The notes beneath the pieces are model-generated. The model searched no databases and had not been told where the DNA came from. It saw only the letters and a program-made list of their open reading frames with translations. This document shows, piece after piece, positions 20,010-61,211 of a DNA stretch of 64,000 nt. The DNA lies in the NCBI GenBank assembly GCA_043812975.1, contig JBDRLP010000027.1:32001-96000 (forward strand). Reading direction: 5' to 3'. Source of the DNA: Candidatus Iainarchaeum sp. Lineage in GTDB: Archaea > Iainarchaeota > Iainarchaeia > Iainarchaeales > Iainarchaeaceae. Position 1 is the first letter of the stretch. Each line of letters opens with the position of its first letter. The position numbers and the translations under genes are program-made.

Positions 20010-20044
20010 TTTATAAATACTTTTAGGGTTAGTTGCCGGTGTGG
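20010..20044 (-). promoter_or_regulatory. radA promoter: CCACACCGGCAA, 15 nt, TTTATAAA
   Basis: Motif 20044-20033; TATA-like box 20017-20010. Confidence 0.65.
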
Positions 20045-20056
20045 GATTTTATTAGT

Positions 20057-20269
20057 TTATTTAAAATTTGGAGGAAGCCCAGATTTAAAAAATTCCATTG
20101 GAGATATCCCAAGTTTTTCTAATAAAGGAAGCATTTCTTCTCTTATTCTATCTACTTCTTCAGTGGTTTTAGCGACTCTAATTCTGGCGTCGTAATTTTT
20201 AATCTCGAGTATAGTTCCTCTTCTAGTAAAAGGAGTTTTACAGCCAAATTTTCTCCATAATCTTGGCAT
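20057..20269 (-). CDS. Small basic orphan protein
   Basis: 70-aa ORF with TTTAAATA close upstream (leaderless). Confidence 0.55.
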   Translation of the reverse strand: MPRLWRKFGCKTPFTRRGTILEIKNYDARIRVAKTTEEVDRIREEMLPLLEKLGISPMEFFKSGLPPNFK

Positions 20270-20307
20270 TATAAAATTTAGTCTTTAGTCCTATTTAAAG
20301 GAAACCC

Positions 20308-21138
20308 TTATTCGCTTTTATCCGCAAAAATCCTTGCACTCCACCCAAGGTGAAGCTCTATTCCGTCTCTTCCTTCTTTAGTGTAACATCCTTCAATCAA
20401 AACTTGATCGCCCTCAGAAAACCTTTCAACTTCATCACACATTTCATTCCATGCAGTCCCCCTTATTTCATTTACTCCTTCGCCAATCATAAAATTCATT
20501 ACTTTTCCTTTTCCTTTCCCGGTTTCGAATTCTTTTGCAGGAAAAACTCTTTTAATTTCAACTTTAACATTAACATCATTCATATTTAAATCAAGATCAG
20601 TTATACTCACAATATTTTTTTCAATTTCAGGAAGTTCAGCAGTTTCATCTTTTGCAAAAGAACTATTATAATTCAGGTTCAGTTGCAAAGTATTATTATA
20701 ACTGGTTACTGCGCAGTTGCTAAGTTTTAATGCAGTTCCTTTTTGGAGCCCCATTTCTGAAAACTTGTCAACATCTTTGTTCCAGAGGGTGGCTCTTATT
20801 TCTCCAGTGTCATCAAGCAGAATAACACTCTGTAATTTTCCCGTTCTGCCATTTTTGTCAAAATTTTTTGGAGCATAAGCCTGTTTTAGCCTTGCGATTA
20901 CATCAATATTATTCATTCCTTCTTTCAGAGAATTAATCTTTATAGCTTCAGTAGGCCTGCTATTCAAGTTAACCCCTAGTTCTTTGGCAATCATAAAAGC
21001 CGCACCTGAATCAGTTAATAATCCTGAAAATTTCTCTTTTTTCTGATCTATGAGCTGTTTAACCTCCGCATTCGTTTTTCCGCTTGAAGAAGCTATTGTT
21101 TCAACTATTCCTTGTTCTGCTGTCGCATTCATTTCCAT
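20308..21138 (-). CDS. Replication protein A-like, two OB folds
   Basis: DDTGEIRATLWN and IRGTAWN OB motifs; N-terminal IAKELGV helix. Confidence 0.85.
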   Translation of the reverse strand: MEMNATAEQGIVETIASSSGKTNAEVKQLIDQKKEKFSGLLTDSGAAFMIAKELGVNLNSRPTEAIKINSLKEGMNNIDVIARLKQAYAPKNFDKNGRTGKLQSVILLDDTGEIRATLWNKDVDKFSEMGLQKGTALKLSNCAVTSYNNTLQLNLNYNSSFAKDETAELPEIEKNIVSITDLDLNMNDVNVKVEIKRVFPAKEFETGKGKGKVMNFMIGEGVNEIRGTAWNEMCDEVERFSEGDQVLIEGCYTKEGRDGIELHLGWSARIFADKSE

Positions 21139-21190
21139 CCTAAAAGTCAAGTGCTTAAAGAATAAATAACTTACTCTCAAGAAAGCTATT

Positions 21191-21838
21191 ATGTTCGAAA
21201 AAATCACTGAAAACCTTTACCGGCTCATAGTGCAGGGAAATAGCAGCAATGTTTTTCTCATAAAAGCAGATCAAAATATTCTAATTGATACCGGTCTTGA
21301 AGCTGATTCAAAAAAACTTGAACAGGCTCTTGAAAATGAGAATCTAATCCCAAAAGATATTTCATTGATTTTACATACCCATGGCCATGCTGACCACATC
21401 GGAGGCGATATTTTGTTTCCTCGTGCTGAAAAATGGATGTCAAAGTTTGACGGTGAATTAGTAAATGAAAAAGACGATTCTTTTGTTCTTGCTTCGTGGT
21501 TTAATCAGTATCATTACCCGGAAATAAATAATTTTTACAAAAAAAATCAGGTTTTTGAATTCGGAAACTTTTCTTTGAAAGTTATTGAAACCCCTGGTCA
21601 TACTCGTGGAAGTGTTTCATTTTATGATGAAAAAAACAAAATTCTTTTTTCAGGAGATACTTTGTTCAAAGGAACAATAGGCCGTTATGATCTTAATTCC
21701 TCAAGCAAGGAAGAACTAACTGAAAGCATCAAGAAAATTTCCCAGTTGGATTATAAGATTCTTTTACCCAGCCACGGAGAAATATTACGGGAAAACCAAA
21801 AAGAGAATATAGAAGCCGCATTTAAGTTGCTTGAATAA
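21191..21838 (+). CDS. Metallo-beta-lactamase fold hydrolase
   Basis: THGHADHIG, TPGHT, FSGD. Confidence 0.9.
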   Translation: MFEKITENLYRLIVQGNSSNVFLIKADQNILIDTGLEADSKKLEQALENENLIPKDISLILHTHGHADHIGGDILFPRAEKWMSKFDGELVNEKDDSFVLASWFNQYHYPEINNFYKKNQVFEFGNFSLKVIETPGHTRGSVSFYDEKNKILFSGDTLFKGTIGRYDLNSSSKEELTESIKKISQLDYKILLPSHGEILRENQKENIEAAFKLLE

Positions 21839-21914
21839 ATTAAACTCCTTAAAAAGCTTTCCAATCCAGATTACATTTTTATATGGTTTAGAAGTTAGTT
21901 TATTAGTTGATTTT

Positions 21915-22694
21915 ATGGATGATGGCAAAATCTACAAGCAGATATTAAAGAGAATTCAGGAAAAAGGCGGTCTGGCTTTTACAGTAATAGACCCTCCAAA
22001 CCAGGAACCAGTAACCTCAGGAAAATTAGCAAAAGTAGCTGAAGAAGCAGGAATAGACGCAATTGCTGTTGGTGGTTCTGTAGGAGCGCAAGGAGAACTT
22101 TTAGATAATACTATTCTTCAAATAAAGGAAAATTGTTCTTTACCTGTTATTTTATTCCCTGGGAATATTGCTTCAATCAGCAAGCATGCCGATGCAATTT
22201 ATTTTATGTCAATGCTTAATTCTTTAGACCCCTATTATATTACTGGAGCTCAGATAGCGTCATCTTATCCTTTAAAAAAAACAGGGTTGGAAATAATTCC
22301 AACTTCTTATATTATTGTTGAGCCTGGCAGAGCCGTAGGATGGGTTGGCAGAAGCCAACCAATACCAAGAGAACTTCCTTACTTAGCAGGAATAACCGCA
22401 CTTGCCGGTGAATACATGGGTTCAAAGTTAGCAATTTTAGAATCAGGAGGAGGAGCCCAAAGCCCTGCCCCAAAAGAAATGATTGCTTATACAAGAAAAC
22501 TAATTGATATTCCTATTTTAGTTGCCGGCGGAGTAAAAAATGATAAATATGCTTATGATTGCATAAAAGCAGGAGCCGACATTGTTCATATTGGTACAGC
22601 AATTGAAAATGAATCCACTAATTTTTCAAAAGCAAAAGACTTAATGAAAAAACTAGCAACTGCGGTTACAAAAGCAGGAAAAGAAAAACAATAA
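21915..22694 (+). CDS. Geranylgeranylglyceryl phosphate synthase
   Basis: IDPP, VGGS, LFPGN, LESGGGA, GGV (PcrB/GGGPS family). Confidence 0.88.
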   Translation: MDDGKIYKQILKRIQEKGGLAFTVIDPPNQEPVTSGKLAKVAEEAGIDAIAVGGSVGAQGELLDNTILQIKENCSLPVILFPGNIASISKHADAIYFMSMLNSLDPYYITGAQIASSYPLKKTGLEIIPTSYIIVEPGRAVGWVGRSQPIPRELPYLAGITALAGEYMGSKLAILESGGGAQSPAPKEMIAYTRKLIDIPILVAGGVKNDKYAYDCIKAGADIVHIGTAIENESTNFSKAKDLMKKLATAVTKAGKEKQ

Positions 22695-23567
22695 TCAGTT
22701 CATTATTTTTCTCAAAGATTCTTTAGTTGAAAATTTAAAATCGAATCCCAGAGATTTAATTTTTTTGTTAGAATAATACCTGTCTCTTACCATCCTTTTC
22801 AGATAATCCAAGTCTAATAAAGGAACGATTTTCAAGTAACCATTAATGAAAGCAATAATTTTCCCTAAAAACAGAGGAACCTTTTTCAAAGGCTTTTTCA
22901 TACCGCTTTCTTTTCTAATGAATTCAGCAAGTTCTTTCAGAGTCATTGCTTCGTCATCGCAAAGCATAAAAGTTTCCTCAAAACAATTTTCATTGTTAAT
23001 AGAAAACAATATAGCATTCACAACATTTTCCAATGAAACAAGCTGCCAATGATTGGAACCGTCTCCAATAAGCGGAAAATCCTTTCTTATTATTTTGATT
23101 ATTTTATCCCAATAATGGCCTTTTCCTATTATTATTGCAGGTCTGAAAATTGTCACGGGAAAAATTTCCTGATAAGAAAGAACTTTCTGTTCTGCCTCCC
23201 ATTTACTTCTTTCATACCTAGTTTCAGGGTTTGGTTCTGTTTCCTCATTTTTTAATCCATGGGTTTTCCCAAAAACAGCTACACTACTCAAAAAAATAAA
23301 TTGTTTTACTCCATTTTCTGATGCTGCTTCTAAAACATTTTCAGTTCCTTTAACATTAACATCAAACAAATCAGCAGCATGTTCATCAAGCTTTGCTGCA
23401 CAATGTACAACAATATTAGCTCCCTTTAGAGATTTCTTAACCTGTTCAGTTTTAGTAACATCACAGTTCTGGCGGTTGCATTCAATAACATCAAAATGCT
23501 TTGCTTTTAGTTTTTTGACAAGTGCTTTTCCAACTAAACCATTGCTTCCTGTTACTGCAATTTTCAT
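22695..23567 (-). CDS. NAD-dependent epimerase/dehydratase
   Basis: VTGSNGLVG, YERSK. Confidence 0.88.
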   Translation of the reverse strand: MKIAVTGSNGLVGKALVKKLKAKHFDVIECNRQNCDVTKTEQVKKSLKGANIVVHCAAKLDEHAADLFDVNVKGTENVLEAASENGVKQFIFLSSVAVFGKTHGLKNEETEPNPETRYERSKWEAEQKVLSYQEIFPVTIFRPAIIIGKGHYWDKIIKIIRKDFPLIGDGSNHWQLVSLENVVNAILFSINNENCFEETFMLCDDEAMTLKELAEFIRKESGMKKPLKKVPLFLGKIIAFINGYLKIVPLLDLDYLKRMVRDRYYSNKKIKSLGFDFKFSTKESLRKIMN

Positions 23568-24607
23568 TTTGAATTCCTCATAATCAACAATAAGTCTTTT
23601 CCAAGTTTTTTCTTTTTCACAATTCGTATTTTTAAAGTCTTTTTGAGTTTAAACGCCTTTAAACCCTGTTTAATTTCTCTGTCAGCAATAATAAAAACCA
23701 ATCTATCAAACATTTTTTTTTCTAATAATTCTGAAGCAAGTCTGTTTCCTGGTTCAATCAAAACTGTTTTGATTCCAAAAGAATAAAGCTTTCCAAAAAC
23801 ATCATCCAAATCAACCCCCTTCTTTGAATCTTTTACAGTAACAACCTTTGCACCTTTCTCAAGTAACTTTTTGACTTTATTTTTCGGAGCTTTTTTTGTA
23901 CAGAAAATAATTATAGTTCCTTTTTCAGAAAACAATTTAGAATTCAAAGGGATTCTTGCTTTCGAATCAAGCACAATCCGTACAGGATTTCTTCCCTTTC
24001 TCACACTCAATTTTGGGTTATCTTTCAAAACAGTATTGATTCCAACAAGTATTGCATTATTTTGTGTCCGCAGTTTCTGAACAAATTCTAATGCTTGTTT
24101 TCCCGAAATTTTCTTTTTTTCCCTGTTTCCGAACGAAATAAATCCGTCATTGCTCATAGCAATTTTGATTGTTATTGTTGGGGTTTTAGTCTCACAATAA
24201 TTTGTTATGTAGAAGTCATATAGTTTTTTAGCTTCTTTTTCATTTGTAATCTTTACAATAATTCCGTGTTTTCTTAATTCTTTAACTCCGTTTCCTGATT
24301 CTTTGTTTGGGTCTCGCCAAGCAATAAAAACACGCTTAATTCCGGCTTCGATAATAGCTTTTGTACAGGGGGATTGCTTTCCATAATGATTACAAGGTTC
24401 AAGTGTCACAAAAAGGTCTGCTCCTTTGGCCTTTATGCCTGCTTTTTCAAGTGAGGTAGTCTCAGCATGTTTACCCCCAAATTGCTCATGAAACCCTTTT
24501 CCAACTACTTTTCCTTCCTTAACAACAATCGCTCCAACCATTGGATTTGGCCATGCATCTTTTCCTTTTTTGGCTAGTTTAATAGCTTCTGGCATGAAAT
24601 TTTTCAT
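23564..24607 (-). CDS. ribD: Bifunctional riboflavin deaminase/reductase RibD
   Basis: PNPMVGA, HAE, TLEPCNH...PC, GINTVLKDNP. Confidence 0.9.
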   Translation of the reverse strand: MKNFMPEAIKLAKKGKDAWPNPMVGAIVVKEGKVVGKGFHEQFGGKHAETTSLEKAGIKAKGADLFVTLEPCNHYGKQSPCTKAIIEAGIKRVFIAWRDPNKESGNGVKELRKHGIIVKITNEKEAKKLYDFYITNYCETKTPTITIKIAMSNDGFISFGNREKKKISGKQALEFVQKLRTQNNAILVGINTVLKDNPKLSVRKGRNPVRIVLDSKARIPLNSKLFSEKGTIIIFCTKKAPKNKVKKLLEKGAKVVTVKDSKKGVDLDDVFGKLYSFGIKTVLIEPGNRLASELLEKKMFDRLVFIIADREIKQGLKAFKLKKTLKIRIVKKKKLGKDLLLIMRNSK

Positions 24608-25434
24608 TAAAATCCTCCGGCTAATAAAAGACCCAGTTCAGGAAAAGCAAATGCCAATAAAACCCCTAAAAAAATAAAAACACCAAATCTAGGAAGATTC
24701 CTGTAAACAAAAATTTCTTTAATTCCTTTTTTTTCAAGTTCTTTTTTTTCTTTTTCCCCATAAACTCCTTTGAAGCCTTTCCCAAATTTTTCCCTTTCTT
24801 TTTCACTCATAAAATCAAATGCAATTATTTCATCTTCCTCAATGTCTTTCAATTTTATTTTTTTGAGAAAAAATTCTTTTCTGATTCCTTTTTCAAATGC
24901 AATAAAAAGAAGTCCAAAACTAAGAGGCAGTCCGAACATAAGCAAATAATTTATTGAAACAAAACCTGTTTTTGAAAGAACAAACAAATAAACAATCAAA
25001 ATTACTAGGAAACCAAGTGCTCTCATTATCCCTTGTTTGTTATACTGAAAGTTAATGCCTTTTCTGAAATATTTTATCATGTAATAAGTTGAAAGAAAAA
25101 TTATTGAAGTTAAAGCAGATAAAAGAACCGCTTGAATAATGAAAACGCTATTGTTGAAGAAAGGCAAAGCCAAAGCAATTCCTGTGTAAAGCTTTACATC
25201 GCCACCGCCGATTTTTCCTGTGTAATAGAGCGCATAACCAATTCCGAAAACTAATAATCCTAAACCTATCCCTAAAAATTCTTGTTCAATAAGGTTCATG
25301 AACAAGCCAAAAACAATTAGCGGGATTGTTATCCAGTCATAAATGTAACCGGTTTTAAAATCAACATAACCCCCGACTCCCGCGGCAAGAAGTATCGCTA
25401 GTTGTCTTAGTAAAATAAGTTCCATGTTTATCAA
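24607..25434 (-). CDS. A24-family prepilin peptidase
   Basis: YVDFKTG.IYD and IGGGDVKL aspartate motifs, multi-TM. Confidence 0.85.
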   Translation of the reverse strand: MINMELILLRQLAILLAAGVGGYVDFKTGYIYDWITIPLIVFGLFMNLIEQEFLGIGLGLLVFGIGYALYYTGKIGGGDVKLYTGIALALPFFNNSVFIIQAVLLSALTSIIFLSTYYMIKYFRKGINFQYNKQGIMRALGFLVILIVYLFVLSKTGFVSINYLLMFGLPLSFGLLFIAFEKGIRKEFFLKKIKLKDIEEDEIIAFDFMSEKEREKFGKGFKGVYGEKEKKELEKKGIKEIFVYRNLPRFGVFIFLGVLLAFAFPELGLLLAGGF

Positions 25435-26777
25435 CGAATTTTGAATTTTTTCTTTTTAGCAAACATTCCCTGTAACTTTTTCATGTTCATTCCTTTTCCG
25501 TCTTCAAACTTTTTAGCATCAACATTGCTGAATTGCTTGAAAACTTTTTTCATTTTCTTAAAACTTTTTATAAGCTCTCTTACTTCTTCCTGGTTAACTC
25601 CTGAGCCTTTTGCAATCCTCGCAATCCTGCTTTTGTTCATTATATCAGGATTTGTTTTTTCTGGTTTAGTCATCGAATCAATTATAACTCCAAATTTATC
25701 CAGTTTTTGTTCTCCTACTTCTGCCATTTCTTTTGGCAGTTGCTGGCTCATCCCCATCATGTCAAGGACTTTTCCCATTGGCCCCATTTTTCTTGCGGCT
25801 TTCATCTGCTGATAAAAAGTTTCTAAAGTAAATTCTCCTTTCAGGAGTTCTTCAGGATCTAATTGTTCTTCTTCCTGAACTTCTTTTGCTTTCTCAAGCA
25901 ATGATTGAAGGTCACCATAACCCATTATTCTGCTTAAATAACGTGTTGCATCAAACTCCTGCAGGTCATCAGGTTTTTCTCCGGTTCCAATAAAATAAAC
26001 ATTTGAATTTGTTAAATGACAAGCAGCTAATGCACCTCCTCCTTTTGCTGATCCATCCATTTTCGTTATTATAACTCCATTAACGCCGACACTTTTGTGG
26101 AATGCTTCAGCCTGTTTCTTAGCTACTTGTCCGACATCTGAGCCAATCACAAGCCATTTTTCTTTTGCTTTGAAAACATTTTCAATTGCCTTTATTTCTT
26201 TTGTGAGTTCTTCATCCAGAGCACTTCTTCCTGCAGAATCACAAATAACCAAATCATAATCTTTGAATTCTTTTAACCCTTGTTCAATTATTCTCGTTGC
26301 ACTCTTTTCTTTTTTATTCCCGTAAAAACCCGCTTTCACTTTTTCTGCAATAGTTTTTAGTTGTTCAAATGCAGCAGGCCTGAAAACATCTGCGGCAATA
26401 ACCCCTACTTTTAATCCTCTTTTGATGTACCATTTTGCAAGCTTTCCTGTTGTTGTGGTTTTTCCGCTTCCGAACAATCCAACAAGCAAAATCTTTTCTG
26501 GTTTTTCCGGGGGTTTAACATGCCCTCCAAGAATCTCTGCAAGATTATCGTGTGTGGCTTTAATCACATGCTCTCTTCTGTTAATTCCTTTTGGCAAGTC
26601 CTGGAATGCTTCTTCTTCTATTTTTTTGCTTAATTTTAGAACTAGGTTTATTTCCATGTCAGAACTAATGAGTGCTCTTTGCAGTTCCTTGATTACTTCT
26701 TTAACCGCGGCTTTGTCAATTTCGGAACTGTTTCTCAGTTTTTCCATTGCTTTTCTCAGGTTTTCTCCAAGTCCCAT
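25431..26777 (-). CDS. srp54: Signal recognition particle protein SRP54
   Basis: GLFGSGKTTT, DSAGR, TKMDGSAKGG, M-domain SRIARIAKGSG. Confidence 0.95.
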   Translation of the reverse strand: MGLGENLRKAMEKLRNSSEIDKAAVKEVIKELQRALISSDMEINLVLKLSKKIEEEAFQDLPKGINRREHVIKATHDNLAEILGGHVKPPEKPEKILLVGLFGSGKTTTTGKLAKWYIKRGLKVGVIAADVFRPAAFEQLKTIAEKVKAGFYGNKKEKSATRIIEQGLKEFKDYDLVICDSAGRSALDEELTKEIKAIENVFKAKEKWLVIGSDVGQVAKKQAEAFHKSVGVNGVIITKMDGSAKGGGALAACHLTNSNVYFIGTGEKPDDLQEFDATRYLSRIMGYGDLQSLLEKAKEVQEEEQLDPEELLKGEFTLETFYQQMKAARKMGPMGKVLDMMGMSQQLPKEMAEVGEQKLDKFGVIIDSMTKPEKTNPDIMNKSRIARIAKGSGVNQEEVRELIKSFKKMKKVFKQFSNVDAKKFEDGKGMNMKKLQGMFAKKKKFKIR

Positions 26778-26851
26778 AGTTATCACTAAAATATAGTAGA
26801 TTGTATAATAAAAAAAGAATTAAATAGAGGGGAAAAACCCTCTTTTTGTTA

Positions 26852-27061
26852 TTAAGCCTTTGCTACTTCTTGGATTACTTTCTTTGCTTCAGTTCCTTCT
26901 TGTACTTCTTTCTTTTTGGTTCTGAAATTAGCATATGGCCTGTATTTTGTTTTAGTCCATGCTTCAGGCTGTTTTTTTCTCATTTTGAATTCTTGTGCTA
27001 AAAGTTCCATTCTGAACTCTTCGTTAGACTCCATTCCTAATAGGTCGTTTAAAGATGTCAT
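26852..27061 (-). CDS. Hypothetical small protein
   Basis: ORF directly downstream of TRAM gene, same strand. Confidence 0.55.
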   Translation of the reverse strand: MTSLNDLLGMESNEEFRMELLAQEFKMRKKQPEAWTKTKYRPYANFRTKKKEVQEGTEAKKVIQEVAKA

Positions 27062-27066
27062 GTGAA

Positions 27067-27474
27067 TCATTCCTCCTTTTTTTCTTCGTTTTCATCAGAA
27101 TCTTCTTCAGAATCATCCTCAGTCTCTTCCTCGGTTTCCTCTTCAGTTTCTTCTGCTTCTTTATCTGCTGTGTCTTCGGTCTCTGTTGCTTCTTCATCTG
27201 TGCTTGGGTCTTCGTCTGAATCTTCCTGAGTTTCTGCCTCACCATCAGCAGCTTCCTCAGAATCTCCAATAACTTCCCCAAAGCTTACTTTGCCTCTTAC
27301 AGCATTAATCTTTACTTTTACTTTATCTCCTTTCTGCACGTTAGGCACTATAATCACATAGTTGTTAACTCTAGCGATTCCGTCGCCTTTTTCTCCAATT
27401 CCTTCAATTTCGACATCATAAATGTCTCCTTCTTTTACCGGAATTGCACCAAATCTTCCTCTTTTTCCGTCCAT
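27067..27474 (-). CDS. TRAM-domain RNA-binding protein with long acidic tail
   Basis: PVKEGDIYDVEIEGIGEKGDGIARV, then D/E-rich tail. Confidence 0.88.
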   Translation of the reverse strand: MDGKRGRFGAIPVKEGDIYDVEIEGIGEKGDGIARVNNYVIIVPNVQKGDKVKVKINAVRGKVSFGEVIGDSEEAADGEAETQEDSDEDPSTDEEATETEDTADKEAEETEEETEEETEDDSEEDSDENEEKKEE

Positions 27475-27646
27475 TTAATTTCCCCCTTTACTTATTTTTC
27501 AAACAACGTGCGGATGCCAATCAAAACCTGTCTAATGAATTATTACTCATAGAATAAGGTTATTTGTTGAAATCCAATCCTATATTAATAGGTGCTTTTA
27601 AACTATTTAAATGAATCCCTTTTTGCCAGAATCAGCTTATATTGAT

Positions 27647-30793: not shown

Positions 30794-30794
30794 C

Positions 30795-50165: not shown

Positions 50166-50426
50166 TTATTTGAAGCTTTTGAACCATTTTTCGTATTCTT
50201 TGTGATTTTTAAAACACCTAATAATGTAAAGTGTCTCTTCTTCAAAATTATAAATGAGTCTTGCTTGTTTTGTTACTTCTTCAACAAAGTAGGGCATACC
50301 GTGCTTTAAGTGTCTTTTGAAGGGGCTTTTGAATATTTTTTCAGCGTGTTTTATGAACTGTTGTCTCAGGGAATTATCTATTTTTTCTAAGTCACTGAGC
50401 GCATTCTTAGTGTAATAAATTTTCAT
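50166..50426 (-). CDS. RelE/ParE-family toxin
   Basis: MKIYYTKNALSDLEKI, RLIY, small basic protein after antitoxin-like gene. Confidence 0.7.
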   Translation of the reverse strand: MKIYYTKNALSDLEKIDNSLRQQFIKHAEKIFKSPFKRHLKHGMPYFVEEVTKQARLIYNFEEETLYIIRCFKNHKEYEKWFKSFK

Positions 50427-50430: not shown

Positions 50431-50628
50431 TCACAGGCCAAACTTTTTTTTCACTTCCTCGTGCGTAAAAGTTTTTGTTTTGCCTGAGTGGATTCCTGCC
50501 ATTTCAGCATCAATTCCCTTGTTTACAAGAATCACTTCTTCCCTTTCTTTTTCATAAGCCTTTGCTTTTCTTTTCAAATCCAAATACTCCTTTTCAGGAA
50601 TAGTAACGATATTACTCATACTAACCAT
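50431..50628 (-). CDS. Putative antitoxin
   Basis: VTIPEKEYLDLK and C-terminal GKTKTFTHEEVKKKFGL. Confidence 0.65.
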   Translation of the reverse strand: MVSMSNIVTIPEKEYLDLKRKAKAYEKEREEVILVNKGIDAEMAGIHSGKTKTFTHEEVKKKFGL

Positions 50629-50665: not shown

Positions 50666-50700
50666 TTTAAAAACAAATTCAGGCATCATTGCCGGTGCGG
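50666..50700 (-). promoter_or_regulatory. CCGCACCGGCAA, 15 nt, TTTTTAAA upstream of TA pair
   Basis: Motif 50700-50689; TATA-like box 50673-50666. Confidence 0.55.
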
Positions 50701-53724: not shown

Positions 53725-53940
53725 TCAATATTTGTCAAATTTTTCTTTTTTAATATCATTCATTCTTTCCTGAATCAATGATGCAATTATAATTCCTGCG
53801 CCGATTATTGATATTGTCCAGCCTCCAAAAAAGGATATTGTGAAAAAGATTTCTCCAAAAACTCCGAATATTGGAAAAACAGTAAGCAAAATTAATCCAA
53901 TTATTACAATTATTATTCCAATTGATTGTGTTGTGTTCAT
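53725..53940 (-). CDS. Small two-TM protein
   Basis: Two hydrophobic helices upstream of YbjQ. Confidence 0.6.
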   Translation of the reverse strand: MNTTQSIGIIIVIIGLILLTVFPIFGVFGEIFFTISFFGGWTISIIGAGIIIASLIQERMNDIKKEKFDKY

Positions 53941-53988
53941 TGAATAAATTAACTGCAAAGGGATTAAATTAGTATTTGAATTCAGAGT

Positions 53989-54183
53989 CTAGGATTTTGA
54001 TTTCCTAAATCCTTTTCCTTCAAGATTCTCTTGTGCTTTTGTAGCAGCTGTTACTTGAGGATGTTTTTCTACGTTCATTTGATGTCTAAACTCCTCTGCA
54101 TAAGCTTCCCTGTGAGTTAAACCTCGTGTTCTATACAGCCCAATTCGCAAACTTGTTGGAGTTTTAGTAGGTCTTTTTGGCAT
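53989..54183 (-). CDS. Small basic orphan protein
   Basis: MPKRPTKTP...FRKSKS. Confidence 0.45.
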   Translation of the reverse strand: MPKRPTKTPTSLRIGLYRTRGLTHREAYAEEFRHQMNVEKHPQVTAATKAQENLEGKGFRKSKS

Positions 54184-54221
54184 ATTTCCCAAAATAATTA
54201 TGTTTTGATTCTATATTAATA

Positions 54222-54279
54222 TTCGCACCGGCAAGAATTTGAGTTCGCACCGGCAACCAACCCTAAGTTAATTTAAAAA
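54222..54279 (+). promoter_or_regulatory. nurA promoter: tandem TTCGCACCGGCAA, 15 nt, TTTAAAAA
   Basis: Copies 54222-54234 and 54244-54256; TATA-like box 54272-54279. Confidence 0.7.
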
Positions 54280-54300
54280 CCTCGAACCTTTGCTTTTACT

Positions 54301-55386
54301 ATGAATATGTCTAAAGTGATTGATTCTGCGGTTGAAACAATCCATTCAGGAGAACAAAGAAAAAAACTGGTTACTGAAAAGCTCACTCCGTTAAAATATA
54401 AGAAATTTTCTTCTCAGGAGCTCCCGGAAAAAGTATTGGTTCTTCCTGTTGAAAAGTGGATTCCCGATTGTATAATTGGAGGGGTGGATTCTGGTTTTGT
54501 TGCAAAGCGCCTTGCGTCAGTTGACCTTGTTCTGATTAGAGCTATGGGTGTCTGCTTTGATTACAAAAAGGGCATTGTGGATAAAGCCAATTATTATCCT
54601 GGTTATTTTCAGTTTCCGGAACCACATTTAAGCAATAATGCATTGGAAGAAGATGAGGCTGAGCAAAGCAAATCATTAATGCGTTTAAAAGAAGAAGTTA
54701 AAGCGTCAAAAAAATTAATTGAAGAGCATTCTCCGAAATATTTGTTTATTGATGGTTCTATTGTTCCGCAGTACCAAGACAAACCAAGAAAGGAATCTAA
54801 GTTAACTGATAATTATATTAATATTATTCAGGAGTTTGAATCTTTTTATGAATTGGCTGAAAAAAATAATTGCACATTAATTTCTACGGTGGAAGATTCT
54901 AGAGGTTCTAGGTTCAGACAGATTATTCAGGATGAAATTCTTGAGAAGGAAAAAATTCTTGAAAAAGAAAAATTAGATGGTTTGTTTGATTCTTCTTTTT
55001 TGGATTATTTTTTGAACGTAGGAGAACGCTCAAGTTGTTTTACTTACACGAAAAATATTAAACAGCATCCTGTTCTTTCTGATTTCAATGAAAAGTGGAG
55101 CAACCATATTTTTGGTTTGTACATTAAACCTTCTAATTATGACAAACCCTTGAGGGTTGAATTCATCACTAAAGGGGGCATAAAAGAAAAAGCAGATGAA
55201 GTCGCAAAAGTCGCGTTTGCTTTAAGTTCATTACATCGCGAGTATGCTTATCCTTCAATTTTAATAGAGGCGGATATGCATGCTAAATTAAAGCAGGATG
55301 AGATTGAAATTGTTTATAATAAAATAATGGATAAATTGGGTAATTCAATTAAACTAAAAATGAGGCGTGATAATAGGCCTTTTTAG
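54301..55386 (+). CDS. nurA: NurA nuclease
   Basis: GGVDSG, FIDGS, LRVEF, YAYPSILIEAD; upstream of herA. Confidence 0.85.
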   Translation: MNMSKVIDSAVETIHSGEQRKKLVTEKLTPLKYKKFSSQELPEKVLVLPVEKWIPDCIIGGVDSGFVAKRLASVDLVLIRAMGVCFDYKKGIVDKANYYPGYFQFPEPHLSNNALEEDEAEQSKSLMRLKEEVKASKKLIEEHSPKYLFIDGSIVPQYQDKPRKESKLTDNYINIIQEFESFYELAEKNNCTLISTVEDSRGSRFRQIIQDEILEKEKILEKEKLDGLFDSSFLDYFLNVGERSSCFTYTKNIKQHPVLSDFNEKWSNHIFGLYIKPSNYDKPLRVEFITKGGIKEKADEVAKVAFALSSLHREYAYPSILIEADMHAKLKQDEIEIVYNKIMDKLGNSIKLKMRRDNRPF

Positions 55387-55395
55387 GTGATTTTC

Positions 55396-55911
55396 ATGGT
55401 ATTTGAACGTTTCTCAGAAGTTGATTCAACTGTTTTCAGAAGTTCGATTCCGCGAACAAATGAAGACGTGGATTTTTTGGTTTCTAAAGGGATTTCAGAA
55501 GTGATTTCTTTTGAACTTGTTAATAAATCATTGAGCGCCTATGCGGAATCAAAAGGAGTTAAGTTTCATGATTTTTCAACTATTGATCAGGATTATTTGC
55601 CTGATAAGAGAGAGGCAACTGCGTTTTTCAAAGTAATAAAAAACGCTGAAGTTTCAGGAAAGAAAGTTTTGCTTCATTGCAGTGCGGGTTTGCAGAGGTC
55701 TGGTGTGATGGTTGCTGTTTATTTGGTTGGAAAAGGAATGCATCCACTTCAAGCATACCAATTCGCAGGCACTGCCGAAGTTACAATTAAAGAACCATTG
55801 ATGCGTGAGGCGAATGCGTTAAAAGATCTTTACACTAATATTAGAAAAGAGAGGCCTGGTTCAAGAAAATTGAGACATGTTGTAAAAAAACCAAGGAGAA
55901 AATTGAAATGA
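55396..55911 (+). CDS. Cys-based PTP/dual-specificity phosphatase with basic C-tail
   Basis: VLLHCSAGLQRSG (CX5R). Confidence 0.85.
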   Translation: MVFERFSEVDSTVFRSSIPRTNEDVDFLVSKGISEVISFELVNKSLSAYAESKGVKFHDFSTIDQDYLPDKREATAFFKVIKNAEVSGKKVLLHCSAGLQRSGVMVAVYLVGKGMHPLQAYQFAGTAEVTIKEPLMREANALKDLYTNIRKERPGSRKLRHVVKKPRRKLK

Positions 55912-56024
55912 TTTGTCCAAAATGCGGAAATGATTCTTTTGAAGAGCTTCCTTTAGAAAAAGGAAAACAAAAAAGATGCAGAAAGTGCGGTTTTGTGGGA
56001 AATCCGATGAGTGATTTCACGTGA
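55908..56024 (+). CDS. 38-aa Zn-ribbon peptide (not in ORF track)
   Basis: MICPKCG...RCRKCGF; ATGA and GTGA overlaps on both sides. Confidence 0.7.
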   Translation: MICPKCGNDSFEELPLEKGKQKRCRKCGFVGNPMSDFT

Positions 56025-56203
56025 CTCAAAAAGAAAAAAATAAAGTAACTTTTTGTTCAAGCTGCGGTTCTACAAATGTAAAACCAAGTTATGCAATGGG
56101 AACTATTGATAATCGTGTTGAGTGCTTGGATTGTAAAACTTTAGAGTTTCCTGTTGAGGCTGAGGAAAAGTTCAGGAAAAAGTTTATGGAGAGGAAAAAA
56201 TGA
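56021..56203 (+). CDS. Zn-ribbon protein
   Basis: FCSSCGS...ECLDCK. Confidence 0.75.
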   Translation: MTQKEKNKVTFCSSCGSTNVKPSYAMGTIDNRVECLDCKTLEFPVEAEEKFRKKFMERKK

Positions 56204-56592
56204 GCAGATCGCCTTTTTATTATGAGCACTCCCCAAAACTATTTTCAGGAAGGATTTCTTTAATAAAATCCGATTTAGATTATTTGAATAGTAAAGGAAT
56301 CAAAAAATTAGTCTTATTACAGGATGTGAATGATAATATATTGAATGCTCTTAGAACTGCCGGTTTTGCCGTTAAAGTTTTTCATTTAGGTACAAATCCC
56401 CCTTATGATTCAGAAAAATTAAGAGTGGTTTCTCGCGCTATGGCTTCTGCTAGAGTTTCTTTGCAAAAAAATGAAGGAGTGGCTGTTTTATGCAATCAAG
56501 GATTTCGTTCATTTGACATTTGTAAAGAAATTCATAATCCTATTGACAGGAAAAGATTAACCAAAACTCGAATTAGGCGGTTGAGAAAATGA
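56200..56592 (+). CDS. Degenerate PTP-like protein with Arg-rich tail
   Basis: DLDYLNSKGIKKLVLL parallels DVDFLVSKGISEVIS; VAVLCNQGFRS (CX4R). Confidence 0.6.
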   Translation: MSRSPFYYEHSPKLFSGRISLIKSDLDYLNSKGIKKLVLLQDVNDNILNALRTAGFAVKVFHLGTNPPYDSEKLRVVSRAMASARVSLQKNEGVAVLCNQGFRSFDICKEIHNPIDRKRLTKTRIRRLRK

Positions 56593-59500
56593 CCAAAAAC
56601 GAAGAAATAGGAACAGTAATAAGCACTCCAGATGGTCCTTCTCCGAGTGCTTTGGATTTTGTTGTTTATTCAGGAACACTTCACAGAGGAATGTTTGTTG
56701 AATTAGATTATGCTGAAGGCACTCTTGTTGCTTTGGTTACTGATGTTGTTAAAACAAATCGTTATTTTGAAAGAGTTGAATCAGTAAAGGAATTCGAATC
56801 CTCAGGAACAAAATTATTTGAACAATTCCCTACTCATGAATGGGAATTCCTTTTAGCAAAAACAAGACCGCTTGGAGTTTACAATAAAGGGATGATTAAG
56901 CGTTCTAGTTTTCCTCCTTCTCCTGGGGCTAAAGTAAGGGTTGCTTCCAAAGAAACTCTTGAAAACTTTTTAGGTTTAGATTTGGAAAAAGGTTTAATGC
57001 TTGGAGAAATTGAACATCACGATGTTTCAGTAAAATTGAACATGTCAAGATTATTCCAGAAACATTTAGCTATTTTGGCTATGAGTGGAGCAGGTAAGTG
57101 TACAAGTTTTGATGCTGAAATATTGCTTGAAAATAAGGTGCAGGTAAAAATTGGCGAATTAGTTGATTCAATATTAGAGAAAAATAAAAGAGTTGAAGAT
57201 GGTGTTGAATTTTGGGAAGGGGATTTGGATCTAAAAACTTATTCTTTTAATGGAGAAAAAATTGTTCCTGCGGAGGTCAAAGGAGTTTACCGAAGGAAGT
57301 CTCCGCATGAATTGATTAAGGTCACAACTCGGAGTGGTAGGATTTTGAAGGTTACTCCTGAACACTTAATCCCTATGTTTAGTGGTTCTATTGAGTGGTT
57401 GCATGCAAAGGATTTGGTTAAAAAAAACTACTTGATTTTTCCGAGGATAAATTGGAGTGGTTCTGAGCAAGTAATGGATTTTTCTTCAGTTGTTGGCGAG
57501 AAAACCATAGTTCGCGGTGGTTTTGCGGAGTCAAAGAAGTCCGGTAAAAAGGTTAGGTTATTGCAGAGTGTTGACAAGGATTTTGTCAGATTGTTTGCTT
57601 ATCTTTTGGCGGAAGGACATAATACTTGCGGTTCTCAAATTTGGTTTAGTAACGAAGATGAGTTTGTACGAAAGGATTTTTCGAAGCTGGTTTTTGATAA
57701 GTTTGGTTCTCGTGTCAGTGTAGCTAAACATGGGGGCGATTTGATTTTTTATAATAAGTTGTTGGCTCAGGCTCTTTCAAAGAAAGGGTTTACTAATTCT
57801 AGTTGGACTAAATTTGTTCCTCCTGAGATTTTGCGGAGCAGACGTGAAGTTTTGCTTTCTTTTCTTTCTGTTTTTATTGATTGTGACGGGCATATAAACA
57901 AAAGCAAGTCTGAGTTGGAGATAACTTTAGCGAGTAAAAAACTTATTTTTGGTATTGAAGAAATCCTCACAAAGCTGGGTATTGTTTCTTTTAGAGGGAT
58001 CAAAAAGACTGATGGCAAGGTATATCAAAGATTGTTTGTTAGAGGGGCGGAATTGAAAAAGCTGAAGGATCTCGATCTTTTGATTGGTTATAAAAAGAAG
58101 GCTCTTGAGAAATGGATTGCCTCTAAAAACAACCCTAATGTTGATGTTGTTCCCAATTTACATTCTCATTTGTTTGAGTTGTTGTCTTTGTTGAGAATGC
58201 CTCAGCCACAGGCTGAGTCGTCAGGCATTAACAATTATCTTTACCGCCGAGATAACCCTTCTAGGGAAAATTTGAGTGTTTTAATTTCTATTTTTGAGCG
58301 AAGATGTGTTGAGGTAGAAAAGGCAACTGAGGACGCTTATACTCTTTATAAAAGCATTCCTAAAGTTAGCGAAGAAGATGCTTTAGTGGTTGTTCAGGAA
58401 GCTTATTCCAGTGGTTTGGATTTTAATAAAATCTCTTCAGGAAGTGGTGTTTCAAAAACTACTGCAAGAAGGGTTGTTAGAGGTATCACTTCTCCAAAAA
58501 GTAGTGTTTTTTCTTTGGCAAAAAACATTTCTCAGTCTAGGTATGCTGAATTTGGATTCGTTGAAAACTTCGACGGGAATTCAGCTTTAACTTCTATTAA
58601 GGAAATTTGTGAGAGGCTTGGTCATGAGACACAGACTTTTTGTGTTTCAAATGGGGTTTACAAGAATTTTCTATATTCTCATTCAAAAGATAGGGGTGTT
58701 GCTGACCATTCTATTGTACTCAAGTTGTCAGAGTCTCTTTGTGAAATTGCGAGAAAATCTGAGAAAAATTTGGGCTTAGCTAAGGGAATTATTTTTGATT
58801 TGAAGAAAGCGATTGATTTGAATGCTTTTTTTGACGAGATTGTGAAAGTTGAAAAAGTTCCTTCTGAAAACGAGTTTGTTTATGATCTTTCTGTTGATAA
58901 TTCTAGTTTTGTTGCTAATAATTTGTTGATTCATAATAGCTACTTAACTTCCGTTCTCTTTGAAGAACTTTTAGAAAGAAAAAAAGAAGACGGAAGACTG
59001 GCTTTGATTGTAATGGATACTCATGGAGAATATAGGAATTTTGCTGAACCAGTAAAAGATTCAAAGAGTAAAGATTTTTCATCCAAAACAAGATTTGTTA
59101 AAGCAAGCGAAATTAGCATCGGTGTTCCTAAGCTTTCTATCGGAATGCTTTCCATTATGATTCCTGGATTATCAGGGCCGCAGAAGAGAGACCTTGCGAG
59201 AGTTCTTGAAAAATTAAGAAGAGAAATGAAAGACGGTTTAGGCCCCTATGATTTTGGTGCTGTAAAATCTGAAATATTTAAGGATGAGGAAATGAAAGAG
59301 TCAACAAAATTGGCTTTGACTGGATGGATAATTTCATTAGAACAGTTGAAACTTTTCGGAAAAACTGATAATCCAAGTATTAATGATCTTGTAAAACCAG
59401 GACAACTTACAATTGTTGATTTGAGTGATGTCATTGAAATGAAAAAGAAACAGATTATTGTTTCTTATTTTGCTTCGAAACTTTTCTTTGAAAGGCGCCA

Positions 59501-59969
59501 AAAAAGAATTGCTCCTTTTTCTCTTGTTTTGGAAGAAGCACATCAGTATTGCCCTGAAGGCACTTCAAAAGAAGGGGCTATTTCCAGAGGTATTATTGAA
59601 ACAATTGCAAGGGAAGGAAGAAAGTTCGGTGCTTCAATTTGTTTAATTTCTCAGAGGCCGATTAATCTTTCAACAACTGCATTAAGTCAATGCGGCACTC
59701 ATATAATTCTCAGAGTAACAAATCCTTATGATCTTGATCACATTGGTAAAAGCAGTGAAGGTCTTGACAGGCGTTCGCTGGACATGATTACTTCTCTAAG
59801 AACGGGAGAAGCTCTTCTTGTTGGTGAAGCCGTAAATTACCCTACTTTTTTCAAGGTTCGAAAAAGGACTTCTCAGGATTCTATTCATGAAAAGTCTCTG
59901 GAGGAGGCTTCTGTTGAGTTTGAGGAAATAAAGGAAGCATCACAGAAGGATATTGAAGATTTGATGTAA
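56589..59969 (+). CDS. herA: HerA helicase/ATPase with intein
   Basis: HAS-like N-terminus, HLAILAMSGAGK|intein|SY, DTHGEY, LEEAHQY, REGRKFG, SQRP. Confidence 0.92.
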   Translation: MTKNEEIGTVISTPDGPSPSALDFVVYSGTLHRGMFVELDYAEGTLVALVTDVVKTNRYFERVESVKEFESSGTKLFEQFPTHEWEFLLAKTRPLGVYNKGMIKRSSFPPSPGAKVRVASKETLENFLGLDLEKGLMLGEIEHHDVSVKLNMSRLFQKHLAILAMSGAGKCTSFDAEILLENKVQVKIGELVDSILEKNKRVEDGVEFWEGDLDLKTYSFNGEKIVPAEVKGVYRRKSPHELIKVTTRSGRILKVTPEHLIPMFSGSIEWLHAKDLVKKNYLIFPRINWSGSEQVMDFSSVVGEKTIVRGGFAESKKSGKKVRLLQSVDKDFVRLFAYLLAEGHNTCGSQIWFSNEDEFVRKDFSKLVFDKFGSRVSVAKHGGDLIFYNKLLAQALSKKGFTNSSWTKFVPPEILRSRREVLLSFLSVFIDCDGHINKSKSELEITLASKKLIFGIEEILTKLGIVSFRGIKKTDGKVYQRLFVRGAELKKLKDLDLLIGYKKKALEKWIASKNNPNVDVVPNLHSHLFELLSLLRMPQPQAESSGINNYLYRRDNPSRENLSVLISIFERRCVEVEKATEDAYTLYKSIPKVSEEDALVVVQEAYSSGLDFNKISSGSGVSKTTARRVVRGITSPKSSVFSLAKNISQSRYAEFGFVENFDGNSALTSIKEICERLGHETQTFCVSNGVYKNFLYSHSKDRGVADHSIVLKLSESLCEIARKSEKNLGLAKGIIFDLKKAIDLNAFFDEIVKVEKVPSENEFVYDLSVDNSSFVANNLLIHNSYLTSVLFEELLERKKEDGRLALIVMDTHGEYRNFAEPVKDSKSKDFSSKTRFVKASEISIGVPKLSIGMLSIMIPGLSGPQKRDLARVLEKLRREMKDGLGPYDFGAVKSEIFKDEEMKESTKLALTGWIISLEQLKLFGKTDNPSINDLVKPGQLTIVDLSDVIEMKKKQIIVSYFASKLFFERRQKRIAPFSLVLEEAHQYCPEGTSKEGAISRGIIETIAREGRKFGASICLISQRPINLSTTALSQCGTHIILRVTNPYDLDHIGKSSEGLDRRSLDMITSLRTGEALLVGEAVNYPTFFKVRKRTSQDSIHEKSLEEASVEFEEIKEASQKDIEDLM
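57099..58937 (+). mobile_element. 613-aa LAGLIDADG intein in HerA Walker A
   Basis: Starts CTSFDAE, VTPEH, AYLLAEG and FIDCDG, ends VYDLSV...IHN/S. Confidence 0.93.
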
Positions 59970-60006
59970 AAGCAATTATTATTAACTAATTCTTCGTTTT
60001 TTTTGC

Positions 60007-61146
60007 ATGGCTATTGAGTCTTTAGTTTTATTTGCTGTAGGAACTATTCTGCTGATTAAAGCTGCGGATTTTTTTGTAGATGCTGCTGCTAAAATTGCAA
60101 AACTTTTAGGAGTTAGTGATCTTGTAATAGGATTAACAATTGTTTCTATTGGAACTTCTCTTCCGGAAATTGCTTCGGCTATTTTTGCCGCTTTCTCCGG
60201 AGAACCAAGTCTTGCTATTGGAACGGTTGTCGGAAGTAACATTTCTAACATTGCGCTTATTCTTGGTTTGACTGTTTTTGTTGTAGGTACAATTAAAGTT
60301 GATAAAAAAGCTCTTGAAAAAGATCTTTTCATAATGCTAATGGTTACTGTTTTATTTTTTTACTTTTCAGTAGATGGTTTAATTTCTTTTTTGGAAGGCA
60401 TAGTTTTAGTTGTTATTTTTGTCCTTTACATGTTTTTCCTGTTTGGTTTTATGAAACGTTTTGAGGAAATATTTTCATATGATCTTTTCCTGAAACAGTT
60501 TTTCGGAACTGAAAAGTTTTCTGTTTTTAATGTTAAAACGTATTTCAAAATAATGCAGGCCGGAGTGGATCCTGTTACTTATCACAGGCTTCTTGGTTTT
60601 GATGGGAAGAAGTTCAGAGAAAAAATCGGAACCAGAATTGATAAAGGGGAAGTAACCGAAGCAAAAAAACTTTTCAGCAAAGAATTCTTTTCATCAATTA
60701 TCAACCAGTCAGTTATTTTAGTAATAAGTTCATTGGGTGTTTTGTATGGTGCTAAGATTCTGATTGATGGAGCAATAGGTCTGGCTACCTTTTTTGCAAT
60801 TCCAAGTTCAATAGTAGGTTTGTTTTTGGTTGCTATAGGAACTTCGCTCCCTGAATTAGGAGTTTCAATTTCCTCAGCAAGAAAAGGTTACTTTGATATT
60901 TTAATTGGAAACATTATCGGTTCTAATATTGCAAATATACTCTTGGTTATTGGTGCTACTTCTGTTATTTCTGCTTTGAGTTTTTCTTTTGCAGAAATTC
61001 TTGCTCCTATGTTTTTCATGCTTACAATTTCCTTAGTCCTTGGATTTTCAATTCATAGAAATTACGACATCAATAAGGGTGAGGCTCTTTTATTACTGGT
61101 TCTATACGCAGCTTTTGCATATGTAGCTTATATTACCTTGATTTGA
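60007..61146 (+). CDS. CaCA-family Na+/Ca2+ antiporter
   Basis: Two alpha repeats GTSLPE...GSN. Confidence 0.92.
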   Translation: MAIESLVLFAVGTILLIKAADFFVDAAAKIAKLLGVSDLVIGLTIVSIGTSLPEIASAIFAAFSGEPSLAIGTVVGSNISNIALILGLTVFVVGTIKVDKKALEKDLFIMLMVTVLFFYFSVDGLISFLEGIVLVVIFVLYMFFLFGFMKRFEEIFSYDLFLKQFFGTEKFSVFNVKTYFKIMQAGVDPVTYHRLLGFDGKKFREKIGTRIDKGEVTEAKKLFSKEFFSSIINQSVILVISSLGVLYGAKILIDGAIGLATFFAIPSSIVGLFLVAIGTSLPELGVSISSARKGYFDILIGNIIGSNIANILLVIGATSVISALSFSFAEILAPMFFMLTISLVLGFSIHRNYDINKGEALLLLVLYAAFAYVAYITLI

Positions 61147-61150
61147 AATT

Positions 61151-61211
61151 CCGCACCGGCACGAACTTGGAGTTCGCACCGGCAATGTACCCCTTAAAAA
61201 CGCTTTTTAAA
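61151..61211 (+). promoter_or_regulatory. Tandem CGCACCGGCA motif upstream of TTTTTAAA of the PolB-like gene
   Basis: Copies 61152-61161 and 61175-61185; TATA-like box 61204-61211. Confidence 0.65.

Follow-up and report, generated by a model that had tools for sequence, protein, structure and literature searches.

A directional promoter box ahead of repair and fork-restart genes in Candidatus Iainarchaeum and its relatives

To our knowledge, archaea lack LexA, and the Orc1-2/DDRE system of the Sulfolobales (DDRE, DNA damage-responsive element) is the only archaeal damage regulon that has been worked out; the PolB-type polymerase Dpo2 belongs to the Sulfolobales damage response. Archaeal upstream activating sites such as those of Ptr2 and TrmBL1/SurR lie just upstream of the TFB-recognition element (BRE) and the TATA box at a fixed distance, are palindromic or AT-rich, and serve metabolic genes. 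The present analysis concerns a stretch of 64,000 nucleotides (nt) from Candidatus Iainarchaeum sp. (contig JBDRLP010000027.1, positions 32,001 to 96,000 of the forward strand), referred to as the window, in which a short box precedes radA, the nurA-herA operon, a gene for a 498-amino-acid (aa) PolB-like protein and a toxin-antitoxin (TA) pair. Judged from sequence, this box, (T/C)C-GCACCGGCA-A (10-12 nt), is quite probably the site of one sequence-specific transcription factor that would govern a repair and fork-restart regulon.

Among known systems the DDRE comes closest. As described in the accessible parts of PMC6061795 and PMC5817253, it is an activating, non-palindromic word (5'-ANTTTC-3') that Orc1-2 binds upstream of the core promoter, and an excerpt of PMC2246294 reports that repair genes are not raised by UV in Sulfolobus. 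The Iainarchaeum box is likewise a short, non-palindromic, directional word upstream of the core promoter and common to a set of promoters; it occupies a similar place (about -46 to -57, compared with -46 to -39 for the upsX region examined in the accessible part of PMC6061795), and extra Orc1/Cdc6 paralogues are encoded in both genomes. The two systems differ in word, lineage, gene content and regulator class. ANTTTC in the Sulfolobales stands against GCACCGGCAA in Iainarchaeum; the Sulfolobus set consists mainly of ups pili, the ced DNA importer and tfb3, whereas the Iainarchaeum core is radA, nurA-herA, Hef, Hel308, RecJ and MCM; and by bit score neither Iainarchaeum Orc1 paralogue is of the Orc1-2/ORC2 class.

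With the Ptr2 and TrmBL1/SurR sites the box shares a fixed place upstream of BRE/TATA, and some Iainarchaeum promoters carry it in tandem, about two helical turns apart; those sites differ, as is generally known, in being palindromic or AT-rich and in their metabolic targets. As in the bacterial SOS response, one cis word joins a recombinase, nucleases, a polymerase-like protein, TA pairs and mobile-element genes. The term SOS-like, proposed in an earlier sequence-only reading of the window, is apt for this gene content but not beyond it, since no LexA-type S24 peptidase (PF00717) was found in the 94%-complete assembly and the box is a directional word upstream of an archaeal TBP/TFB-type TATA box, not a palindrome over the promoter. 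No paper on the box, or on promoter regulation in Iainarchaeia/Diapherotrites, was found in the limited literature collection searched.

The box in the window and across the genome

A search of the window for CRCACCGGCAA with at most one mismatch returned six matches, compared with a mean of 0.47 in 100 dinucleotide shuffles, none of which reached six. Word search and sequence reading place all six copies where the sequence-only reading had put them, each directed toward its downstream gene, with the consensus C(G/A)CACCGGCA(A/C). The features concerned, including open reading frames (ORFs), are listed below in window positions.

20033-20043, minus strand: radA box (CACACCGGCAA), from word search and sequence reading
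20010-20017, minus strand: radA TATA box TTTATAAA, 15 nt past the box
19913-19987, minus strand: radA 5' leader, ending in the Shine-Dalgarno sequence GGAGGAA; start inferred from the TATA position
17429-19912, minus strand: radA, 827 aa with a LAGLIDADG intein (Pfam Rad51, 9.9e-87; Intein_splicing; HHH_5)
50689-50699, minus strand: box of the TA-pair promoter (CGCACCGGCAA), from word search and sequence reading
50666-50673, minus strand: TATA-like TTTTTAAA of the TA pair, 15 nt past the box
50434-50628 and 50166-50426, minus strand: TA pair, a 65-aa antitoxin-like ORF and an 86-aa ParE/RelE-type toxin ORF
54224-54234, plus strand: nurA distal box, from word search; not kept in relatives
54246-54256, plus strand: nurA proximal box, from word search and sequence reading
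54272-54279, plus strand: nurA TATA box TTTAAAAA, 15 nt past the box
54301-59969, plus strand: nurA operon
54301-55386, plus strand: nurA (Pfam NurA)
55387-55911, plus strand: PTP/DSP phosphatase (Pfam PTP-SAK/DSPc)
56200-56592, plus strand: 130-aa ORF
56589-59969, plus strand: herA with intein (Pfam DUF87 (HerA), Intein_splicing)
61152-61162, plus strand: distal box of the PolB-like gene (CGCACCGGCAC), one mismatch, C as last base
61175-61185, plus strand: proximal box of the PolB-like gene, from word search and sequence reading
61204-61211, plus strand: TATA-like TTTTTAAA of the PolB-like gene, 18 nt past the box
61232-62728, plus strand: 498-aa PolB-like gene

The distances read from the sequence agree with those first proposed, 15 nt between box and TATA at radA, nurA and the TA pair and 18 nt at the PolB-like gene; as a general rule the fixed spacing loosens, from exactly 15 nt at three window loci to a range of 15-19 nt genome-wide. 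Similarly, the proposed tandem period of 22-23 nt is present at nurA (22 nt) and at the 498-aa gene (23 nt) but is not kept in relatives, the 22-nt tandem at nurA promoters occurring in the assembly with the window (G000) only. The nurA mRNA is probably leaderless because the ATG lies 29 nt past the first TATA base, and the corresponding distance at the PolB-like gene is 28 nt. Unlike nurA and the PolB-like gene, both apparently leaderless, radA has a leader ending in GGAGGAA. Its predicted length in the window is about 75-85 nt, and about 75-100 nt when the orthologous loci L083-L104 are included; length and GGAGG are kept in relatives. When 17 radA leaders were aligned with MAFFT, RNAalifold gave only four pairs.

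The names radA, nurA and herA are backed by Pfam. The RelE-type toxin has weaker backing (ParE_toxin, E 6.7e-4, 20.6 bits against a Pfam cut-off of 23); the 65-aa ORF upstream of it matches no family, and pair and box recur together in the relative G003.

G000 (1,237,545 bp, 68 contigs, 35% G+C, 94% complete, with the window on contig C27) was scanned with a core position weight matrix (PWM) of 14 nt built from 25 sites. At a score of at least 16 this gave 38 matches, compared with 3, 0, 8, 5 and 1 in five mononucleotide shuffles. The relaxed word [GAT]CA[CT][CT]GGCA[AC] occurs 64 times in G000, and a TATA-like hexamer stands at +12 to +25 in 19 of these, against 2 of 19 in the reversed genome and 903 of 20,000 random 14-nt windows (4.5%). 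From the PWM matches, 29 box-plus-promoter sites were chosen by eye as intergenic and followed by an AT-rich box; those at C40 28016 and C52 7150, two in all, must be regarded as doubtful. The first T[TA][TA]A[TA]A begins 15 nt past the box end at eight sites, 16 nt at three, 17 nt at four, 18 nt at two and 19 nt at three; one further site gives 8 nt via an earlier TTAAAA, and eight have no match to this simple expression. At 10 of the 29 the ATG lies 44-47 nt past the box end, which fits a leaderless mRNA starting about 25 nt past TATA, and the box is predicted to sit at roughly -46 to -57 from the transcription start. Alignment of the sites revealed a weaker CCC/CTC element 4-8 nt past the box. 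The stretches between box and TATA vary between sites, around which no terminal repeats or target duplications were found, and by eye the symmetry of the box is at most a degenerate YRCCGGYR, the word being directional and upstream of TATA. The PWM matches are thus linked to gene function, orientation and TATA position, and do not behave as the end of a dispersed repeat.

Downstream ORFs were assigned by Pfam, NCBIfam and BLAST clustering. Behind the 29 sites stand nine repair, replication or recombination units, five homing-endonuclease/intein-like ORFs (all free-standing), nine TA-like pairs, four others and the two doubtful cases. The units are the following.

Repair units 1-3: radA (intein); nurA-PTP phosphatase-130-aa ORF-herA (intein); the 498-aa gene
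Repair units 4-6: MCM (intein); Hef (helicase plus ERCC4); archaeal RecJ/GAN (NF053576, E 7e-154)
Repair unit 7: 78-aa ORF, 58-aa ribbon-helix-helix (RHH) ORF and Hel308-type helicase, divided between the ends of contigs C9 and C38
Repair units 8-9: 73-aa ORF with a PD-(D/E)XK_1 nuclease; PDDEXK_5 nuclease with an integrase
TA-like pairs 1-5: ParE-like, a paralogous pair on C10, HicBA, VapBC, DUF4258/MazE
TA-like pairs 6-9: MNT/HEPN, DUF5678 with an Asp protease, two DUF7718/HVO_A0114 pairs
Other sites: a non-coding element, a 70-aa ORF ahead of kae1, TnpB, a 251-aa protein

No box was found in the 220 nt preceding the two PCNA genes, PolD DP2, the 835-aa replicative PolB, RFC-L, RPA, XPD and two SMC/Rad50-like genes of G000; for Orc1-a the upstream sequence inspected comprised 92 nt only. 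Repair and recombination genes, homing endonucleases and TA pairs make up most of what lies downstream of the box. The regulon is wider than the four loci named from the window, adding MCM, Hef, RecJ/GAN, Hel308 and nucleases, and the core replisome lies outside it.

Searches of Pfam and NCBIfam with the 498-aa protein returned nothing, even at E 10, nor did a sequence search of the PDB, and every one of its 68 homologues is annotated as hypothetical. AlphaFold2, run from a 39-sequence alignment, returned a model with pLDDT 89 and pTM 0.89. Among the top Foldseek matches listed from the PDB, nearly all are DNA polymerases of family B or engineered proteins derived from them (E 6e-8 to 1e-6), with TM scores normalised to the query of 0.36-0.49 and best-match figures of 0.42-0.49 at E 6e-8. 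As modelled, the protein has a family-B polymerase fold, so that "PolB-like" is a good description of the predicted fold but not of any Pfam or NCBIfam sequence family. No DTD-type catalytic motif was seen by eye among its invariant residues, and PF00136 in G000 matches solely the 835-aa gene on C23.

Several neighbouring features were recorded at these loci. An RPA-like OB-fold gene for single-stranded DNA binding (20308-21207, minus strand), with no box seen ahead of it, lies directly upstream of the radA promoter. A LAGLIDADG intein is present in three boxed genes, namely radA, herA (56589-59969) and MCM (L017:472-4137; Intein_splicing plus LAGLIDADG_3); radA is intein-free in most relatives (open frames of about 320-350 aa), and in G003 the intein is in RecJ instead. 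Between nurA and herA sit the PTP/DSP-type phosphatase (55387-55911) and the ORF at 56200-56592, which matches no family and by eye contains a CX5R-like CNQGFRS; this putative phosphatase pair in a resection operon hints at phospho-control. The boxed Hel308 operon is headed in six genomes by a protein of 74-86 aa (L010:7153-7386, plus strand; G000 C38 about 3470-3809, minus strand), predicted to form four strands and a long helix (pLDDT 83), for which structure searches gave weak matches (Foldseek, a PC4 homologue, E 0.29; VIA, a YbaB-like protein, Z 6.1). The end of this operon adjoins orc1-a, where contigs C9 and C38 overlap. Rfam searches of eight loci with long leaders or no ORF gave nothing at the gathering score, and no tRNA was found on L003.

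Conservation and concerted change among relatives

Relatives were sampled at the level of the order (31 genomes, of which G000-G018 belong to the same family, f1) and of the class (151 genomes). The exact word with a TATA box (GCACCGGCAA-N13-17-TTWAWA) was detected in 18 of the 31 order genomes, comprising 15 of 18 from the same family together with families f4 and f6, while the reversed control gave a single match. In the class sample it was present in 21 of 151 genomes, namely 13 of the 17 family members and genomes from a few further families of the order, and was absent from all 19 genomes of other orders; the control pattern matched twice there. Orthologue searches followed by upstream extraction, with a PWM score of at least 12 as threshold, gave the counts below, with positions relative to the ATG.

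nurA: family f1 15 of 18, the best match forward at -54 to -56 in 18 of 18; other families 2 of 8
mcm: family f1 13 of 18, mostly at -56 to -66; other families 3 of 10
radA: family f1 16 of 19, forward at -121 to -141; other families 2 of 11
PolB-like gene: family f1 15 of 16, at -54 to -60; other families 2 of 10

At the same threshold, random 150-nt windows of these loci gave 23 of 400, a figure inflated by real sites within the loci. Flanking sequence is not conserved in the nurA, mcm and radA upstream regions. The box is thus kept at the same position ahead of radA, nurA, mcm and the PolB-like gene, and the absence from relatives that would have spoken against it was not seen. Many relatives (L057-L071) have a second conserved word (ACGCAAATTCTCCCAA-like, sometimes doubled) 20-60 nt ahead of the mcm box; it is only partly kept and not repeated in G000.

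Where the canonical word is missing, a lineage-specific variant often takes its place. The low scorers of genus g5 have CA(A/G/C)TGGCA at the same position. Other families have words of their own: TTTCAGGGGAAAC stands ahead of radA, mcm and the PolB-like gene in G027, the core TTCAGGGGAAA ahead of radA and mcm in G025, and CNGGCATGG ahead of radA, nurA, mcm and the PolB-like gene in G028; TTCAGCGGAAA is found in G029 and G030, in the latter ahead of radA and the PolB-like gene. In G022, ACCGGAA(A/G)T, often doubled, precedes radA, nurA, mcm, the PolB-like gene and orc1-b. No such word was seen in G020 (0.8 Mb, single contig). The same change of word ahead of several unlinked genes within one genome is what would be expected of a factor and its site drifting as a pair; it points to one trans-acting factor that reads the box, and is the strongest argument for it.

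Beyond the nurA, radA and mcm sites, 49 further exact sites in relatives yielded 114 downstream ORFs, of which 74 were run against Pfam (mostly the first two per site, third and very short ORFs being dropped). Repair genes behind these boxes include Hef (G012), RecJ with intein (G003), XPD (G023), HerA (G021), the PolB-like gene (G023) and a small ORF with Hel308 (G010, G014), the same small ORF being followed in G002, G003 and G007 by an ORF combining RHH and winged helix-turn-helix (wHTH) domains. Also boxed are a DNA methylase (G007), LAGLIDADG ORFs (G001, G011, G023), TA-like pairs (VapBC, MazEF, AbiEii, DUF7718/HVO_A0114 and others) and Bro-N proteins of 232-288 aa (G006, G008, G011 and three in G021; L113, L119, L124, L153-L155); tblastn with two of the Bro-N proteins found none in G000. 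Taken together, the repair core is stable and the selfish periphery changes.

Proposed mechanism and rival explanations

In the proposed mechanism, a factor bound 15-19 nt upstream of TATA, above the expected BRE position, would help to recruit TBP/TFB and thereby activate transcription. At nurA and the PolB-like gene of G000, the additional copy, which lies two helical turns further upstream, could hold a second binding unit on the same face. At the centre of the regulon would stand recombination, double-strand-break resection and the processing of stalled forks (radA, nurA-herA, Hef, Hel308, RecJ/GAN, MCM, the PolB-like protein and PD-(D/E)XK nucleases), with free-standing LAGLIDADG endonucleases, TA pairs and, in relatives, Bro-N proteins as attached selfish genes. 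Speculatively, being expressed while the recombination machinery is up would benefit homing endonucleases and TA pairs. From its position and from archaeal upstream activating sites, the factor would likely activate rather than repress. Gene content tips the balance slightly toward DNA damage or replication stress, rather than cell-cycle stage, as the signal. Certain points weigh against this account. The 29 sites were chosen by eye, hence their functional tally is not blind, and sites in relatives were sampled by the exact word only, which favours strong sites. The box promoters have strong-looking TATA boxes, which a promoter that depends on an activator can do without; XPD is boxed in G023 and not in G000, so membership is variable; and the presence of MCM and orc1-b would also fit a cell-cycle regulon.

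The last point leads to the best-surviving rival, in which the same regulon is a replication-onset programme run once per cycle, resembling E2F/MBF of eukaryotes, rather than a damage response; its factor would switch on MCM, Orc1-b/RFC-L, RecJ/GAN, RadA and helicases. MCM and RecJ/GAN (the Cdc45 counterpart) are indeed boxed. The orc1-b promoter has a box beside it in 13 of 16 family genomes, G022 has a forward variant at the canonical place ahead of orc1-b, and RFC-L follows orc1-b. However, PCNA (two genes), PolD DP2, the replicative PolB, RPA and RFC-L have no box upstream in G000, most members are repair or fork-restart enzymes, and no E2F_TDP domain was found in G000 (best E 0.18). A cell-cycle programme is accordingly a serious minority possibility.

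Alternatively, the box might be a repressor operator with LexA-like logic, the factor blocking the promoter until a signal removes it. A gene content with TA pairs and a polymerase, like that of bacterial SOS regulons, would suit such an operator, as would TATA boxes that look strong enough unaided and the reverse box at orc1-b, which is only about 11-12 nt from TATA. Archaeal repressors, however, usually act over TATA or the transcription start, and the box lies upstream of BRE/TATA rather than over TATA or the start. That no S24 peptidase was found in the 94%-complete G000, and the activating role of the DDRE as the closest precedent (accessible part of PMC6061795), also make repression unlikely.

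Two further explanations are highly improbable. A mobile promoter cassette, or dispersed-repeat end, spread with selfish genes would account for about half of the sites being ahead of TA pairs, LAGLIDADG ORFs, TnpB and an integrase, and for a GC-rich hairpin element between the box and the orc1-b promoter; it is largely refuted by the orthologous radA, nurA, mcm and PolB-like promoters, which keep the position of the box across the family amid unconserved flanks, and by the concerted change of word in other families; the variable box-to-TATA sequence, without terminal repeats or target duplications, also speaks against it. An extended core-promoter element for a second TFB or TBP, though suggested by the fixed distance to TATA, by the CCC/CTC element that could extend the BRE, by a 111-aa ORF with a single TBP-like repeat (C21:14190-14390; 23.9 bits, just above cut-off) and by TFB3, which reportedly takes part in the Sulfolobus damage response, is hard to reconcile with the one TFB and one full TBP found in the 94%-complete assembly and with a box about 8-20 nt upstream of the BRE contact end, as the BRE is generally placed.

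Candidate regulators and meaning for the family

With one TFB gene and one full two-repeat TBP in G000, a separate dedicated factor would be needed to read the box. Several regulator types were sought in G000 and set aside. The E2F/DP type (PF02319) gave nothing above cut-off, the WYL/DriD type (PF13280) gave no match, and the LexA type fell with the S24 search described above. The RHH(-wHTH) ORF of the Hel308 operon is too patchy, being matched at E <=0.01 in 13 of the 31 genomes, ten of these clearly (E <=1e-30), and not found in the canonical-box genomes G004, G010, G012, G016, G021 and G023; the HVO_A0114-type wHTH partners of DUF7718 are multi-copy and patchy. A membrane-anchored ArsR-type wHTH protein syntenic with orc1-b is a remote candidate.

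Orc1-b is the leading but weak candidate, and its identity with the factor is doubtful. G000 encodes two Orc1/Cdc6 paralogues, 30% identical to one another; the gene for Orc1-b lies on C44 (6560-7675), and orthologue-level matches are present in 28 of the 31 order genomes, the three exceptions being 63-78% complete. The candidacy rests on the boxes beside orc1-b, on the G022 variant and on the Sulfolobales Orc1-2/DDRE precedent. Of the 16 family genomes with sequence, 13 have a reverse box 50-210 nt ahead of the orc1-b ATG and the other three are genus-g5 variant genomes; G022 carries its own variant box forward at the canonical place. Against Orc1-b, both paralogues are far nearer to the initiator class Orc1-1 (2qby_A, 191/240 bits) than to ORC2 (1w5s, 59/69 bits); orc1-b is followed by the RFC large subunit, a replication-gene setting; and the reverse box serves the divergent promoter of a conserved small element, downstream of which are a membrane protein and the membrane-anchored ArsR-type wHTH. 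Moreover, box type in the family is not mirrored in the winged-helix residues. This comparison (winged-helix and initiator-specific motif (ISM) stretches of 24 orthologues, canonical against genus-g5 variant genomes) is uninformative.

The small element beside orc1-b is boxed and unique, contains no ORF and reads GGCTCATTGG..GTTAAGGGAAC..CCCCTTAACTCCC (G000 C44 about 5690-5765; L003). It is kept in 10 genomes (relatives L169-L179) with an invariant 9-bp inverted repeat, so that it offers no covariation signal, and the word GTTAAGGG is not clustered at it; the element may be either a small RNA or protein-binding, origin-like DNA. In G000 only, a GC-rich hairpin-type insert (L003 6465-6530; C44) parts the reverse box from the orc1-b TATA.

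A comparison with the origin recognition box (ORB) bears on the same candidate. The distant-family variants TTCAGTGG.., TTCAGCGGAAA and TTCAGGGGAAA resemble the Pyrococcus mini-ORB TTCCAGTGGAACT as given in the accessible part of PMC1904270, and the box adjoins orc1-b as noted. The canonical box, however, has neither the TTCC nor the GAA core of that mini-ORB, which also counts against Orc1-b; the variants of G025, G027, G029 and G030 do carry TTC..GGAAA, but are one base shorter between the cores. Iainarchaeum sites appear single, promoter-bound and scattered rather than clustered at an origin: orc1-b has one or two boxes beside it, and the remaining sites (about 27) stand singly at promoters spread over many contigs. 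It is conceivable, though improbable, that the initiator-class Orc1-b, kept throughout this DPANN order with a box of its own nearby, was recruited as a master regulator independently of Sulfolobales Orc1-2, reading an ORB-derived word that drifted from TTCAG(T/C/G)GGAAA to GCACCGGCAA. Orc1-b would then turn on recombination, resection, fork-restart helicases, MCM and a dead polymerase, and Orc1-type control of genome-maintenance genes would be an ancient, repeated archaeal theme.

Whichever factor reads it, the analysis contributes the concerted lineage variants, the per-gene counts, a core replisome outside the regulon and the orc1-b link with its limits; on the regulator side, LexA, WYL, E2F and a second TFB are set aside. 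The box offers a handle on the control of genome maintenance, with a DNA bait of about 12 nt, a short list of candidates and a predicted geometry of transcription starts. A repair role is likely for the PolB-fold protein of 498 aa and for the 74-86-aa protein of the Hel308 operon, and selfish genes, namely homing endonucleases and TA pairs, appear tied to the repair programme of their host. Across an uncultivated DPANN family, one promoter word joins radA, nurA-herA, Hef, Hel308, RecJ/GAN, MCM and a polymerase-like protein.

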